Origin: an uncultured Chloroflexia bacterium
Lineage (GTDB): Bacteria > Chloroflexota > Dehalococcoidia > UBA2979
Length of the DNA stretch: 64,000 nucleotides
Assembly (NCBI GenBank): GCA_963728205.1
Contig: CAVSIV010000006.1
Location: 640,001-704,000, forward strand
Direction of reading: 5' to 3'
A model generated the notes under the pieces. That model did not search any database and was not told the DNA's origin. It saw only the letters and a list, made by a program, of their open reading frames with translations. Positions 3,708 to 15,847 of the stretch are shown here, in pieces. Both the position numbers and the translations under genes were made by a program. Each line of letters starts with the position of its first letter. The stretch's first letter is position 1.

Positions 3708-6047
3708 CTACCTGCCGCCTGGCCCGCCCGCCCACCGCTGCGCCATCCGCGCGAACCGCTCGTCGAGCGTGCCGCCGCCGTCCGCCGGCCGCCCGACCGC
3801 GCGGCCGGCCCGGTAGCCGAGCTGCCGGTACGACTCGAACTGGAGCTGGTCCATCTGCTGGTCGAGCGTCGAGTCGTACGGGAAGCGCGGGTTCGTCTGC
3901 CGCCAGTAGTTCACGATGTCGGGCGACAGCTGCTCCTCGACCAGGCCGCTCTTGATCACGACGAGCGTGCCGGCCTCGGCGTCGCCGGCGTTCCCGTGCC
4001 CGCCCGTCGCGGGGTACCGAATGGTGCCCGCCGCGAAGTACGACGGCACGAAGCCCGTCGCCGGGTCGCGCGCGAGCGGCCGCAGGTCGTCGAGGTCGAT
4101 CTCGACGCCGAAGTCGACGCGCGCCAGCCGGATCGCGTCGCCGAGGTTGCCGAACCCGAGCGGCCCGTTGTCGTGCGTCTCGATGTCGGCCATCACCGCG
4201 ATGATGTACTTGCAGCGCCGGCGCAGCAGTTCGTAGAGCCCCGAGTTCTCGAAGTGGCCGCCGTCGGAGAGGTAGACGAGTCCGTCGTCGCGCGAGGCCA
4301 GCCCGAACATCTCCTTCCAGTAGAGGGCGAGCGGCCGCTCGAACACCCACTGCGCGAAGCGACGGCGCCCCGGCGGGCGCGGGTTCTTCACCCAGCGTCC
4401 GAGCCGCACGTTGAACAGCGTGAGCACGATGCTGAGCGTGCGGGTCGTCTTCGTCCCCATGATCGGGCTGACCGCGGCGCCCGACACCGCGGCCGCGGCG
4501 GCGAGCGACATGCCGCCGAGCTCCGGCAGCTCCGCGGTGGGCAGCCAGCGGCTGAGCGCCGACCCCGAGTAGAGCGGCGCGATCACGAAGCAGTCGCCCT
4601 TGCGGTCGAGCAGCTTCGGTCCCTGGCTCGCGGGGAGGTTCAGCGTCGTGCAGATCAACGGGTAGGGCGCGGTCGGCGGCCGCTCCGCGGTGGGGACGAG
4701 GTCGCTCACGCTGCGACGAGACCGGTGCCAGACCTGCGTCCACCGCGCAGGGAACGCCGCCGCGGCGGGCACGCCCGCGGCCACGTCGCCGTCGCGCCCC
4801 GCCTCGCCCGGGGCGGCGCTCACGATCCATGTCTGGCCGATGCGCTCGACGTAGACGTCGTGCAGCGAGAGGTAATTGAGCAGCCGGGTGCCCCAGCCGC
4901 CGAAGATCGTGATCGCGATCGGCGCGGCTGCGCTGAGCCCGATCAGCTGCACGGAGAGCGGGCCGACGCCCCAGAGCGGGCCGAAGCCGGCGCCCCAGTG
5001 CCGCCACAGCACCCACGTCCAGGCGACGACGCCCATGCCGAGCAGGAGGTACCCGCCCACCCCGACGGCGACCGCCCACAACACCCGTCGCCCCGCCGCG
5101 TTCTTCGCGATCTTCCGGACGCCGACCACGACGGTGCTGCCGCTCACCGCCGAGAGCCCGGCGCCGCCCGCGCCGAGCGCGACGCCGCTGTACGTGCCGG
5201 CCGCCCAGTCCAGCAGCCACACCCCGCCCGCGACGGCGGACACCACGGCGATCAGTGCACTCGCGGACGCCGCGTACGGGAGCGCGCGTCGGAAGCGCCG
5301 TGTCCAGGCGTGCGCCGGGTCGTGGAAGAGGGCGGTCGCCGCGAAGGCGGCCACGCCGAACAGCACGACGGGCACGAGCGGCAGGACCCGGAGCACCCAG
5401 AGGTGGCCCTCGAGCGCCCACAGCCCACCGACCGTCACGAGCGTGAGCACCGGCAGCAGGAAGAAGCCCCAGAGCAGCACCGTCGACGCGACGAAGCGGC
5501 CGACCATGCGCCAGGTGTAACCATCGAACAGCCCGATGCCCCGGCCGAGCAGCTCCGCGTGGCCACGCACGTGGTAGAGCGCCGGCGACTCGTTGCCGTG
5601 CACCGGCACGCCGGCCTCCCGCGCCGCCGCCGCGAGCGCGCGGTCCGCGGCGGCGTCGACGCCGTCGCCGTCGCCGTCGCCGTCGCCGTCGGCGTCGCCG
5701 TCGTGGCCGTCGCGGCGACCGCCGGCGGGATCGAGGAAGCCGAACGGGAAGCGGCCGCGCGCCCACCCCAGGCGCGACGGACCCTCGGTGTACGGGAGGT
5801 CGTCCGCGCACAGGCCGGTGAGCGAGGTGCCGGCGTAACCGCCGCCGGAGACGGTCGAGAGGTAGTCGACGTCGGCGAGCAGGTCGTAGCGCGCGAGCGC
5901 CTGCAGGACGCCGAGGCTGAACACGGCCGCGCGCATGCCGCCGCCCGAGAGCGCGACGCCGTAGAGGCCGTTGCGCGCGTCCGGCCGCTCGGGGAAGGGC
6001 AGCGGGCGCCCGCGCGGCGGCGCCTCCACCTCCGCCGCGGTCGCCAT
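3708..6047 (-). CDS. Membrane-embedded patatin/cPLA2-like phospholipase
   Basis: GVALSGGGMRAA (oxyanion hole), DYLSTVSGGGY (nucleophile Ser), YLSDGGHFENSGLYELLRRRC (catalytic Asp); about 6 hydrophobic segments between the Ser and Asp halves. Confidence 0.9.
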   Translation of the reverse strand: MATAAEVEAPPRGRPLPFPERPDARNGLYGVALSGGGMRAAVFSLGVLQALARYDLLADVDYLSTVSGGGYAGTSLTGLCADDLPYTEGPSRLGWARGRFPFGFLDPAGGRRDGHDGDADGDGDGDGDGVDAAADRALAAAAREAGVPVHGNESPALYHVRGHAELLGRGIGLFDGYTWRMVGRFVASTVLLWGFFLLPVLTLVTVGGLWALEGHLWVLRVLPLVPVVLFGVAAFAATALFHDPAHAWTRRFRRALPYAASASALIAVVSAVAGGVWLLDWAAGTYSGVALGAGGAGLSAVSGSTVVVGVRKIAKNAAGRRVLWAVAVGVGGYLLLGMGVVAWTWVLWRHWGAGFGPLWGVGPLSVQLIGLSAAAPIAITIFGGWGTRLLNYLSLHDVYVERIGQTWIVSAAPGEAGRDGDVAAGVPAAAAFPARWTQVWHRSRRSVSDLVPTAERPPTAPYPLICTTLNLPASQGPKLLDRKGDCFVIAPLYSGSALSRWLPTAELPELGGMSLAAAAAVSGAAVSPIMGTKTTRTLSIVLTLFNVRLGRWVKNPRPPGRRRFAQWVFERPLALYWKEMFGLASRDDGLVYLSDGGHFENSGLYELLRRRCKYIIAVMADIETHDNGPLGFGNLGDAIRLARVDFGVEIDLDDLRPLARDPATGFVPSYFAAGTIRYPATGGHGNAGDAEAGTLVVIKSGLVEEQLSPDIVNYWRQTNPRFPYDSTLDQQMDQLQFESYRQLGYRAGRAVGRPADGGGTLDERFARMAQRWAGGPGGR

Positions 6048-15847: not shown

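Follow-up and report, generated by a model that had tools for sequence, protein, structure and literature searches.

The cluster described here lies in a 64,000-nucleotide stretch of a contig from an uncultured Chloroflexia bacterium, hereafter the window, and extends from position 3708 to 15847. Seven coding regions had been proposed by a sequence-only reading of this DNA, and the GC3 phase together with the list of open reading frames located all seven at the sites and on the strands named. A patatin-like gene on the minus strand is followed on the plus strand by genes for a cytochrome P450, a small β-barrel protein (gx), the HFAR protein, a DyP-type peroxidase, a catalase-related domain and an α-dioxygenase-like (DOX) haem peroxidase, such that four distinct haem folds, P450, DyP, catalase-related and peroxidase-cyclooxygenase, stand side by side as anticipated. 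The divergent arrangement of the patatin and P450 genes is correct with respect to the strands; however, a 584-nt coding segment on the minus strand (6050–6633) occupies much of the spacer between them. Likewise, the predicted overlap junctions were all found (GTGA at 10308–10311, ATGA at 11843–11846 and ATGA at 13463–13466), but the ATGA at 13463 stops another frame only. No ferredoxin or reductase was present among the scanned ORFs, a part of those between 1 and 22 kb, in agreement with the reported absence of such redox partners. The spacer between the gx and HFAR genes contains a perfect 27-nt inverted repeat with a 47-nt loop (8872–8972). The genes that flank the cluster, which encode a His kinase, an enoyl-CoA hydratase, response regulators and an ArsR-SRPBCC regulator, are not conserved alongside it.

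The host of the cluster is a soil bacterium. Reads for the region were found in four soil-metagenome runs only, all from one study and with small shares of 0.05–0.07, and no RNA run was listed for the region. The read contigs are mostly 151-nt pieces, and none of those listed spans copy 5 of the linker repeat or the site near 9740 at which the HFAR frame changes, both of which are described below. One piece without differences (13418–13568) runs from the last part of the linker into the start of DOX.

The TPR and α-dioxygenase-like haem peroxidase is encoded at 13463–15847 on the plus strand. In the numbering of the 1334-residue ORF to which it belongs, the TPR comprises residues 555–625 and the haem peroxidase domain residues 762–1285. 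The protein matches PF03098 (An_peroxidase) with an E-value of 2.3e-112. The closest solved relatives of the DOX domain are the α-dioxygenases of rice (PDB accession number 4kvj, E-value 3.4e-107) and Arabidopsis (4hhr, E-value 8.6e-104), and the next PDB families are far weaker, with a peroxidase at 3e-35 and COX at 2e-12. Kim et al. 2021 give H157, H311, T316, F375, Y379, H382, F552 and R559 as key residues of rice α-DOX. All eight are kept in the window's protein as H839, H1000, T1005, F1070, Y1074, H1077, F1238 and R1245, with Y1074, H1077 and H839 aligned to rice Y379, H382 and H157, respectively. The PDB matches and the active-site residues bear out the earlier description of the last enzyme as α-DOX-like with a YRxH motif. 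Seven of the eight residues are invariant across nine aligned homologues, including H1000 and R1245, the carboxylate-binding His and Arg, and T1005, the Thr that positions the α-carbon; the distal His is replaced by Gly in two homologues (P0002 and P0003). The alignments assign the protein to the fatty-acid α-dioxygenase type of the peroxidase-cyclooxygenase superfamily.

A search in which 8000 candidates were scored yielded 1093 TPR-α-DOX proteins at E ≤ 0.001. A WTNWYRR segment is conserved in TPR-DOX, and the 120 relatives listed are 61–69% identical across phyla; the TPR-less DOX paralogues found in relatives are 42–46% identical to the window's DOX. The TPR-DOX proteins form a clade of their own, 64–69% identical across many phyla. 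A search of 40 relatives gave no orthologue of TPR-DOX; weaker, partial matches occurred in six of them, and a weak match to the catalase-like domain in one. The cluster is an accessory trait.

The catalase-related 'mini-catalase' domain (11843 to about 13030, plus strand) has no stop in its frame until 15847, such that 11843–15847 constitutes a single 1334-residue ORF as assembled. The catalase-like and dioxygenase parts, which had been taken for two genes, are joined in this ORF via a 57-nt tandem repeat of 6.6 copies (13039–13420, plus strand) that, in the frame as assembled, encodes a linker rich in Pro, Thr and Ala. Two single bases present in copies 1–4 are missing from copy 5 (13267), and scoring codon usage in the three frames over the linker gave an ambiguous result.

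Single-sequence PDB and Pfam searches were uninformative for the catalase-like domain, the patatin-like protein and gx, and profiles, AF2 models and the ESM Atlas were used instead. The single-sequence search with the catalase-like domain gave zero matches. A 17-sequence profile matched MAP_2744c (PDB accession number 3e4w, E-value 8e-10), coral allene oxide synthase (1u5u, 8e-6) and a catalase (6pt7, 3e-4), so the catalase core is detectable through the sequence profile; PF00199 matches seven of the 17 profile members and not the window's own sequence. The catalase-like designation holds for this core, but the distal His is missing, its position being taken by N98 in the motif AGNTK. Asn is found at this site in all eight loci of the window's mini-catalase subfamily, and the corresponding column in the 150 best mini-catalase representatives contains His in 105, Asn in 25, Gln in four, another residue in four and a gap in 12. 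The locus points to a mini-catalase subfamily defined, at the level of sequence, by Asn at the distal site. The segment RRVIY fits the proximal R-x-x-x-Y pattern as R365-x-x-x-Y369, a segment that the alignments to solved catalases stop short of, and Tyr occupies the Y369 column in 129 of the 133 representatives with a residue there. The chemistry of the domain is not readable from coral allene oxide synthase (cAOS) or MAP_2744c.

The HFAR gene comprises an N-terminal ABM-like domain with a hydrophobic helix (8999–9739, model positions 1–244) and a C-terminal ABM-like domain (9745–10311, model positions 246–425), both on the plus strand. The two parts are in different frames, the change falling between 9739 and 9745; if it is real, the window's copy may be inactive. 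In the AF2 model (pLDDT 87.8), two ferredoxin-like β-α-β domains form a barrel. The structural matches comprise WhiE-ORFI (9lmn_B), with a Z score of 13.6 and RMSD of 4.0 Å over 223 aligned residues, Abx(+)O (9ltx, Z score 11.0), 3f44 (Z score 9.5) and 3mcs (Z score 9.3), and Foldseek returned an E-value of 2e-5. The model identifies HFAR as a tandem ABM-type barrel of the dimeric α+β barrel superfamily. A relationship to DyP or chlorite dismutase was considered and rejected, since ABM proteins head the structural matches and the 50 matches listed include no DyP. Each half of HFAR contains one invariant His. The HFAR family has at least 2501 matches and no Pfam domain, and in the ESM Atlas HFAR-like modules occur within DyP and P450 clusters.

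The C/D-like DyP-type peroxidase is encoded at 10293–11846 on the plus strand, with an alternative GTG start at 10308 that overlaps the HFAR stop. It matches TIGR01413 with an E-value of 4e-27 and 95.3 bits, slightly below the 100.5-bit cut-off, and both of its halves align with PDB entry 8re3 (E-value 1e-52). The motifs GFTDGISQP (GXXDG) and GAHVRR (proximal His) are located at residues 181 and 359, respectively. Among 80 TPR-DOX loci, the DyP gene lies directly 3' of HFAR in all seven that contain HFAR. Modeling of the DyP–HFAR complex resulted in an ipSAE of 0.86, whereas the best of three controls scored 0.00; of the pairs used for calibration, 116 of 157 solved complexes and two of 215 mismatched pairs attained that mark. 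The partner pLDDT in the model is at least 81 and at least 90% of the contacts agree between runs. The complex model supports binding between DyP and HFAR. A second HFAR–DyP pair in the same genome lies beside a FAD oxidase gene and is unaccompanied by DOX, and therefore the module is not lipid-specific.

The cytochrome P450 (about 6987–8306, plus strand) belongs to a DOX-linked subfamily and matches PF00067 with an E-value of 6.6e-14. It has an N-terminal hydrophobic segment, the Cys pocket FLSGPRACPG at residue 384 and the ExxR motif as EAGR at 312. Its I-helix reads FTGSAT, and an alignment of 11 DOX-linked P450s shows Ala or Gly at the acid position of this helix and the Thr retained. The best PDB match is CYP46A1 (5e-8), and no special likeness to the CYP74 type previously suggested was seen: CYP74, CYP8A and CYP152 are absent from the 34 PDB matches. 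The top NCBIfam match, a weak one, is to a RiPP P450.

The gx gene (8358–8807, plus strand) encodes a conserved protein with 58 relatives, all of which lack a Pfam domain. The label GXWXG-like fails, since none of the 36 aligned family members matches PF14231 or PF14232 (GXWXG/DUF4334) at E-values up to 1; the sole invariant motif is W-x-G-K. The best structural match of the AF2 model (pLDDT 79) is 4mve, with a Z score of 11.8 and RMSD of 3.3 Å over 133 aligned residues, and lipocalins follow with Z scores of 6–8. Based on this model, gx looks like a lipocalin/calycin-like β-barrel of the lipid-binding type.

The patatin-like protein, a 779-residue membrane lipase candidate delineated by the GC3 phase and the ORF list (3708–6047, minus strand), matches neither PF01734 nor any other Pfam family at E-values up to 1 and has no PDB sequence match. 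In the ESM Atlas, each of the 30 clusters nearest to it has PF01734 (Patatin), which the three clusters listed show in 58–64% of their members. The motifs GGGMR (residue 35), TVSGG (residue 65) and DGG (residue 595) are present, with Thr replacing the first Gly of GxSxG in the Ser motif, and about five to six hydrophobic segments (residues 181–384) are situated between the Ser and Asp motifs. The extra minus-strand coding segment at 6050–6633, supported by the GC3 phase and translation, starts with MTNGDD and is situated upstream of the start codon of the patatin gene, in a different frame that lacks its own stop. The segment represents either an N-terminal extension that a frame change has severed from the patatin or a gene in its own right; it matches no Pfam family and was not found in the 80 loci.

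Conservation of the neighbourhood was assessed in the 80 TPR-DOX loci by counting genes in the flanking DNA examined. At least one further haem enzyme occurs in 34 loci, with a RoxA-like cytochrome c in 20, the mini-catalase in 18, P450 in 13 and DyP in eight. The haem partners are optional, because the other 46 loci show none of them in the flanking DNA examined. The order gx-HFAR-DyP-mini-catalase-DOX was found in seven loci (L007, L014, L027, L031, L054, L066 and L072) from three phyla, Bacteroidota, Chloroflexota and Actinomycetota. Two of these, the actinobacterial L066 and L072, add P450 and thus hold six of the seven genes. The proposed co-occurrence accordingly stands for this core and for the P450–DOX pair, but not for the full set of seven genes, which is seen in none of the 80 loci, nor for patatin, which accompanies DOX in five of them and in three of the 43 with long flanks. 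The place of patatin in a pathway unit, as first envisaged, is weakened by this poor linkage.

Natural fusions connect several of the same families. The mini-catalase and DOX are fused in both orders. The 150 best mini-catalase representatives include DyP fusions (P0303, P0305, P0306, P0341, P0435 and others), HFAR fusions (P0304, P0401 and P0407) and five proteins in which the mini-catalase is joined to a RoxA-like cytochrome. P0200 combines HFAR with PF03098.

The cluster looks like an undescribed bacterial route that makes or converts fatty-acid peroxides. We consider it somewhat better than an even chance (roughly 55%) that the genes of the region work together as a single functional unit on the cytoplasmic side of the membrane, organized around a TPR-bearing plant-type α-DOX whose hydroperoxide is passed to the neighbouring haem proteins. 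From the gene content, residue conservation, neighbourhood, fusions and predicted DyP–HFAR complex that were observed, we infer the substrate, the product, the sequence of steps and what each partner does as follows. A free fatty acid, possibly released by the divergently encoded patatin-like lipase, would bind DOX with its carboxylate at His1000 and Arg1245. The haem-made Tyr1074 radical would take the hydrogen next to the carboxylate, and addition of O2 would yield a 2-hydroperoxy fatty acid. The catalase-related domain, fused or translationally coupled, and the DyP–HFAR complex would receive this peroxide before it decays to a shorter aldehyde. The P450, acting without a redox partner, may use the peroxide too, and carrying the lipid or holding it in place would fall to the lipocalin-like barrel. 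We know of no activity for any member of the TPR-DOX clade, any Asn-type mini-catalase, HFAR or gx. A bolder version, which we hold only tentatively and regard as possible, envisages a membrane-associated multi-haem 'oxylipin metabolon' unseen before in bacteria. There, the TPR-scaffolded α-DOX would hand the 2-hydroperoxy fatty acid directly to the Asn-type mini-catalase and an obligate DyP–HFAR complex, the lipid hydroperoxide would serve as the oxidant, and the output would be a defined signalling or defence lipid. DOX, mini-catalase, DyP, HFAR, P450, RoxA-like cytochrome and old yellow enzyme, re-assorted and fused across phyla, would then form a modular counterpart of the eukaryotic PLA2-dioxygenase-synthase cascade.

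Several features of the locus could be accommodated differently. Plant and cyanobacterial α-DOXs yield fatty aldehydes (Kim 2021), and the window's enzyme might shorten fatty acids to a Cn-1 aldehyde and CO2 from a Cn acid, for catabolism or for aldehydes, alcohols or hydrocarbons, with the peroxidases clearing stray peroxide. The enoyl-CoA hydratase 1.4 kb past the cluster and the enal-reducing old-yellow-enzyme (OYE) genes that accompany DOX in eight of the 80 loci are in line with such a route. However, the hydratase is among the flanking genes not conserved with the cluster, the recurrent neighbour families include no aldehyde dehydrogenase or reductase and no acyl-CoA ligase, and the tight fusions of the mini-catalase with DOX and DyP favour channelling over clean-up; we regard this route as unlikely. 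Quite unlikely, in our judgement, is an oxidative-stress island in which unrelated peroxidases are grouped for defence against H2O2 or organic peroxides and have no dedicated lipid substrate. MAP_2744c, the nearest solved relative of the mini-catalase, is a protein we take to be an organic-peroxide peroxidase, no PF00199 catalase match was found in the genome, which is 89% complete, and the second HFAR–DyP pair adjoins a FAD oxidase. Yet DOX retains a dioxygenase's catalytic Tyr together with the residues that bind a fatty-acid carboxylate, and a dioxygenase makes peroxide instead of removing it; the catalase-like domain has no distal His of the kind needed for catalase-type turnover, and a specific gene order is kept across phyla.

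The polyketide ABM proteins WhiE-ORFI and the decarboxylase Abx(+)O, which are the nearest folds to HFAR, suggest another use of the same genes, namely that DyP, the tandem ABM protein and the P450 tailor an aromatic or polyketide-like compound and that the DOX-like protein is a radical-forming peroxidase. C/D-type DyPs oxidise aromatics, and the weak RiPP match of the P450 might be read in the same direction. Such non-lipid tailoring is nevertheless improbable and the most doubtful of the alternatives: the recurrent neighbours include no PKS, NRPS or RiPP genes, the DOX residues suit a fatty-acid carboxylate, and the lipocalin-like barrel and the patatin-like neighbour indicate lipids.

The preferred reading, a unit that passes a fatty-acid hydroperoxide from α-DOX to neighbouring haem proteins, bears on a field with very few characterised cases. 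Bacterial oxylipin enzymology includes, for example, two cyanobacterial α-DOXs and the Nostoc 10S-DOX with its catalase-related lyase; the dihaem diol synthases of Pseudomonas are further bacterial oxylipin enzymes. The locus reveals a widespread TPR-α-DOX clade, whose surrounding genes have been reshuffled and joined by fusion to four other haem-protein families, and HFAR, a large unannotated family, gains a testable role as a partner of DyP. The core cluster is present in a cultured isolate, Maribellus mangrovi FJH33 (L054), and therefore the pathway is directly testable.

The window's DOX shares the haem peroxidase-cyclooxygenase fold with plant α-DOX (rice 4kvj/4kvk and Arabidopsis 4hhr) and with the cyanobacterial CalDOX and LepDOX. 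It keeps all of the key residues, namely the distal and proximal His, the YRxH Tyr, the carboxylate-binding His and Arg, the Thr and the two stacking Phe. It differs from these enzymes in the N-terminal TPR, the WTNWYRR segment and the coupling or fusion to other haem enzymes. In coral allene oxide synthase-lipoxygenase (1u5u, 3dy5), a catalase-related domain, matched by the profile at 8e-6, is likewise fused to a fatty-acid dioxygenase; however, its partner is a non-haem-iron lipoxygenase, and the distal His is retained in cAOS. Among solved structures, the 33-kDa MAP_2744c (3e4w) of Mycobacterium avium ssp. paratuberculosis is the best match to the catalase-like domain and is also of 'mini-catalase' size, with an alignment that spans profile positions 70–269 only; the window's domain has a distal Asn instead of His and about 60 extra N-terminal residues.

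Nostoc punctiforme 10S-DOX acts together with a catalase-related 10S-hydroperoxide lyase that has its own gene (Brash et al. 2014, cited in PMC13049297). It is likewise a bacterial peroxidase-family fatty-acid dioxygenase that stands beside a catalase-related haemoprotein converting its hydroperoxide, but the dioxygenase is COX-like (542 residues) and the system has two genes only. In the window, by contrast, the mini-catalase has a distal Asn and is fused to or overlaps the dioxygenase, and DyP, HFAR, gx and P450 are added. The fungal linoleate diol synthases are DOX-CYP fusions in which the P450 rearranges the hydroperoxide without a redox partner (PMC13049297). This pairing of a peroxidase-family dioxygenase with a redox-partner-less P450 resembles the window, whereas the window's P450 is a separate gene, adjoins DOX in the 13 loci noted above and has no detected specific likeness to the fungal enzymes. 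HFAR has the two-ferredoxin-like-domain barrel in common with the tandem ABM/SchA-like proteins WhiE-ORFI (9lmn) and Abx(+)O (9ltx), but with 11–14% identity, a hydrophobic helix of roughly 40 residues between the halves, HFAR and SNYDGS..YMDDF motifs of its own, and a DyP instead of polyketide synthases as its partner. No paper on the gene combination or on a DyP–ABM partnership was found in the literature searched. The cluster is a variation on the theme of a dioxygenase with hydroperoxide-converting partners.

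The G+C content of the window is 66–81% (1-kb windows over the first 24 kb and 4-kb windows over the whole), so that open frames alone carry little weight, and genes were therefore placed by the third-position G+C phase together with the ORF list. The patatin candidate (779 residues) occupies 3708–6047 on the minus strand. The plus strand carries a cytochrome P450 at about 6987–8306 (PF00067, E 6.6e-14), a small protein of 149 residues at 8358–8807 (gx), a protein with an HFAR motif at 8999–10311 (HFAR), a DyP at 10293–11846 (NCBIfam Dyp_perox_fam, E 4e-27) and, at 11843–15847, a single unbroken ORF of 1334 residues that comprises a catalase-like domain, TPR repeats and an alpha-dioxygenase-like haem peroxidase (TPR-DOX). 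Pfam places the TPR repeats at residues 555–625 and an animal-haem-peroxidase domain at residues 762–1285 (E 2.3e-112) of this ORF, and finds no family for its initial 400 residues, nor for HFAR, gx or the patatin candidate. The junction motifs reported earlier are present at 10308–10311 (GTGA), 11843–11846 (ATGA) and 13463–13466 (ATGA).

Several other features surround these genes. Upstream of the patatin ATG, in another frame, a stretch with strong coding phase (6050–6633, minus strand) starts with MTNGDD and is not closed by its own stop codon; it may represent a gene by itself or an N-terminal domain of the patatin-like protein split off by a frameshift, and it has neither a Pfam family nor a counterpart among 80 related loci. 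The 191-nt spacer between gx and HFAR holds a perfect 27-nt inverted repeat (8872–8898 and 8946–8972, 47-nt loop), with short G-rich repeats ahead of it. On its own strand, and 220 nt downstream, the patatin gene is followed by a gene (2621–3487, minus strand) that joins an ArsR-type HTH to an AHSA1/SRPBCC ligand-binding domain, and farther on lies an enoyl-CoA hydratase (1451–2266, plus strand); neither gene shares the conservation of the cluster. After the cluster, 16081–19526 on the plus strand holds genes for a free-standing receiver domain and for at least two more response-regulator or winged-helix proteins, of which 17923–18906 (plus strand) has only a partial Trans_reg_C match.

In a PDB sequence search, residues 541–1334 of the long ORF retrieve the rice and Arabidopsis alpha-dioxygenase crystal structures with E values of 3e-107 and 9e-104, the next families being far behind (a peroxidase, 3e-35; cyclooxygenase, 2e-12). 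The rice residues named in the body text of Kim et al. 2021 (PMC8720084) were transferred to the ORF through a HMMER alignment, and 8/8 are retained: the distal His H157 (H839 in the window ORF), the proximal His H382 (H1077), the catalytic Tyr Y379 (Y1074), the carboxylate-binding H311 and R559 (H1000 and R1245), T316, which positions the alpha-carbon (T1005), and the stacking Phe residues F375 and F552 (F1070 and F1238). The alpha-dioxygenase-like assignment made from the sequence is thus upheld. The TPR-DOX clade is large and strongly conserved; of 8000 candidates scored, 1093 have E ≤ 0.001. Among the 120 matches listed, the majority are "TPR + An_peroxidase" proteins of 775–815 residues, 61–69% identical, and their named sources are Chloroflexota, Planctomycetota and an acidimicrobial sponge symbiont. 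The body text of Kim et al. 2021 (PMC8720084) covers alpha-dioxygenase homologues from five bacterial phyla, with just two enzymes characterised, both cyanobacterial, and the word "operon" is absent from it. In two homologous proteins that fuse the catalase-like domain to the dioxygenase (P0002 and P0003, in an alignment of nine dioxygenase homologues), Gly replaces the distal His (WIQFMNGDW), which fits the partial distal-His conservation remarked on in that text.

The catalase-like part gave no PDB match as a single-sequence query. With a profile of 17 homologues from related loci, matches appear to MAP_2744c, a mycobacterial mini-catalase (3e4w, E 8e-10), to coral allene oxide synthase (1u5u, 8e-6) and, from 3e-4, to true catalases; 7 of these 17 homologues match PF00199, the window's own sequence not being among them. 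The alignment splits into two subfamilies, with G-N-T-K versus H-A-K at one site. The former comprises the window and eight loci (L007, L014, L027, L031, L054, L066, L068 and L072), aligns Asn with the catalase distal His and has about 60 additional N-terminal residues. An exhaustive search retrieved 4003 cluster representatives of the family at E ≤ 0.001. In the top 150, the column of the distal residue holds His in 105, Asn in 25, Gln in 4, another residue in 4 and a gap in 12, and the Tyr of the R-x-x-x-Y pattern occurs in 129 of the 133 having a residue there. Judged from these alignments, the label "catalase-like" is correct as a family assignment, but a defining catalytic residue is absent, the distal His being replaced by Asn.

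The catalase-like domain is separated from the TPR repeats by 6.6 copies of a 57-nt unit; copies 1–4 are identical save for the last base, and copy 5 lacks two single bases. In the assembled sequence the catalase frame translates the repeat into a linker rich in Pro, Thr and Ala before continuing directly into the dioxygenase, giving a fusion. With the two bases of copy 5 restored, the frame stops at a TGA overlapping the ATG at 13463, giving two coupled genes. Third-position G+C and codon score do not discriminate between these arrangements, public reads do not cover the site, and the odds of a fusion in the window organism are about even. The separate, overlapping genes of the sequence-only reading keep their ATGA at 13463 but form one ORF as assembled; coupling is tight under either arrangement. 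Natural fusions carry the catalase-like domain N-terminal (P0002, P0003 and P0018) or C-terminal (P0009 and P0034) to the dioxygenase. Among the best 150 mini-catalase representatives, the domain is also fused to DyP (Asn type: P0303, P0305 and P0306; His type: P0341, P0371, P0435 and P0390), HFAR (P0304, P0401, P0407 and P0403), a RoxA-like cytochrome (P0339, P0352, P0367, P0375 and P0384) and a distant peroxidase (P0379). In the ESM Atlas the HFAR module occurs within a 1011-residue DyP cluster and a 915-residue cluster, 90% of whose members have a P450, and P0200 is an HFAR–peroxidase fragment (PF03098). Through these proteins the families join into one network, a pattern not easily explained unless they act on a common substrate or as a complex.

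Gene neighbourhoods were compared in the best 80 of 225 genome stretches encoding a relative, with up to 10 kb per side, by scanning with the window proteins and by unbiased clustering of all ORFs; 43 of these loci have long flanks (upstream ≥ 6 kb, downstream ≥ 4 kb). One or more additional haem enzymes are present in 34/80 loci and none in 46/80. The commonest neighbour of TPR-DOX is a RoxA-like dihaem cytochrome c (PF21419), found in 20/80 loci and 15/43 with long flanks (L006, L008, L011, L019, L021, L024, L038, L053 and 12 further). The corresponding counts are 18/80 and 11/43 for the catalase-like protein, 17/80 and 10/43 for an adenylate cyclase–AAA–TPR protein, 13/80 and 12/43 for P450, 8/80 and 8/43 for old yellow enzyme, 8/80 and 7/43 for DyP, 7/80 and 6/43 for both HFAR and gx, and 5/80 and 3/43 for a patatin-like protein. 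Three layouts recur. Old yellow enzyme, RoxA-like, P450 and dioxygenase genes follow one another in eight loci, titled Dehalococcoidia, Chloroflexota, Acidimicrobiales and Candidatus Poriferisodalis. The second layout, (RoxA-like)–HFAR–DyP–catalase-like–gx–dioxygenase or gx–HFAR–DyP–dioxygenase–catalase-like, occurs in Bacteroidota (L027, L031 and L054), an unclassified bacterium (L007), Dehalococcoidia (L014) and Actinomycetota (L066 and L072); the last two also have the P450, and thus 6/7 of the window's genes. The third, a Burkholderiales layout, has a regulator, sometimes a patatin, a His-type fusion of catalase-like domain and dioxygenase, and a RoxA-like gene. In Burkholderiales-type loci a protein of roughly 1250 residues (zinc ribbon, adenylate/guanylate cyclase, AAA_16 and TPR) lies upstream of the dioxygenase (L048–L050, L067, L070, L073–L075, L079 and L080 among others); a few of the 17 are distant or on the opposite strand. 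The Asn-type mini-catalase is accompanied by HFAR–DyP in 7/8 loci, the eighth (L068) beginning at the dioxygenase gene, and DyP or HFAR occurs in 0/10 of the remaining catalase-like loci. The co-occurrence expected earlier for the whole set thus holds for the gx–HFAR–DyP–catalase-like–dioxygenase core but is weak for the patatin. Among 40 relatives searched there is no TPR-DOX orthologue, so the cluster is an accessory, patchily distributed trait; six have weaker dioxygenase matches (three TPR-less paralogues at 42–46% identity, two 29–40% matches to domain parts and one 33-residue fragment) and one has a weak catalase-like match.

Four other loci encode both halves of HFAR in the same frame, as one protein of about 420 residues. 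In the window the match is interrupted between 9739 and 9745, where one position of the model is skipped; this is a clean shift of frame by one base, due either to an error in the assembly or to a mutation that arose very recently. Frame changes or in-frame stops also occur in cluster genes of other MAG loci (HFAR, L066 6901–6907; catalase-like, L075 5879–6925; DyP, L014 8479–9885; P450, L062 12564–13874), and may often be assembly errors. The HFAR family has at least 2501 matches; among the 120 listed, P0200 alone has a Pfam domain. The AF2 model (pLDDT 87.8) consists of two ferredoxin-like alpha+beta domains linked by a hydrophobic helix of roughly 40 residues. Its closest solved folds are tandem ABM proteins, with WhiE-ORFI at the top (9lmn, Z 13.6, RMSD 4.0 Å over 223 aligned residues), followed by Abx(+)O (9ltx, Z 11.0), 3f44 (Z 9.5) and 3mcs (Z 9.3); the best Foldseek match has an E value of 2e-5. 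The DyP is closest to 8re3 (E 1e-52), then to D-type and fungal DyPs, with both the GXXDG motif and the proximal His retained. For the DyP–HFAR pair of Maribellus, complex prediction gave an ipSAE of 0.86, against 0.00 for the best of three controls, a mark attained by 116/157 solved complexes and 2/215 mismatched pairs; the partners have a pLDDT of 81 or higher, and runs share at least 90% of contacts. The model supports binding of HFAR by DyP. The window's own genome holds, on another contig, a second, intact HFAR–DyP pair (L089, contig 2, 6667–11420), its DyP 50% identical to that of the window, with a FAD_binding_4/ALO-type oxidase upstream, one unannotated ORF between, and no dioxygenase, catalase-like, P450 or gx gene nearby. 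The pair is therefore a module not bound to the dioxygenase, which suggests that it generally partners a peroxide-producing oxidase.

The gx protein has 58 relatives, all unnamed, and the GXWXG label proposed for it is not borne out, as 0/36 aligned members match GXWXG or DUF4334. Its AF2 model is a β-barrel (pLDDT 79) closest to the uncharacterised Tcur_1030 (4mve, Z 11.8, RMSD 3.3 Å, 133 aligned), with lipocalins and fatty-acid- or bile-acid-binding proteins next (Z 6–8). The P450 retains the Cys pocket and ExxR; its best PDB match is CYP46A1 (5e-8), and no particular likeness to peroxide-using P450s, such as the CYP74 type suggested earlier, was seen. The 11 dioxygenase-linked P450s group closely as a subfamily, sharing the invariant stretch PHWMFTF..S.T and, at the usual I-helix acid position, Gly or Ala. 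The patatin candidate has no match in Pfam or PDB sequence searches and is assigned from its motifs (GGGMR, TVSGG and DGG) and ESM-Atlas features: 30/30 nearest clusters carry Patatin, which is present on 58–64% of members in three of them.

Gene content, residue conservation, neighbourhood, fusions and a predicted DyP–HFAR interface were observed here. In the pathway they are read to form, the dioxygenase would produce a 2-hydroperoxy fatty acid, which the mini-catalase, DyP/HFAR and perhaps the P450 would consume; gx would bind lipid, and the patatin-like membrane protein, the weakest link, would supply the fatty acid. Rival explanations are that the genes serve plain alpha-oxidation or aldehyde formation, that they are a general peroxide-defence island, or that they oxidise a non-lipid aromatic compound. 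A cultured organism, Maribellus mangrovi FJH33 (L054), is available in which the cluster is testable. The literature covered (full text, few subscription papers, Kim et al. 2021 as its body text) holds no description of this gene combination, the TPR-DOX clade, Asn-type mini-catalases or an ABM-type DyP partner. The precedent is the Nostoc 10S-DOX with its catalase-related hydroperoxide lyase (PMC13049297). The theme of a fatty-acid dioxygenase with a hydroperoxide-converting haem partner is a known one, occurring here with several uncharacterised components.
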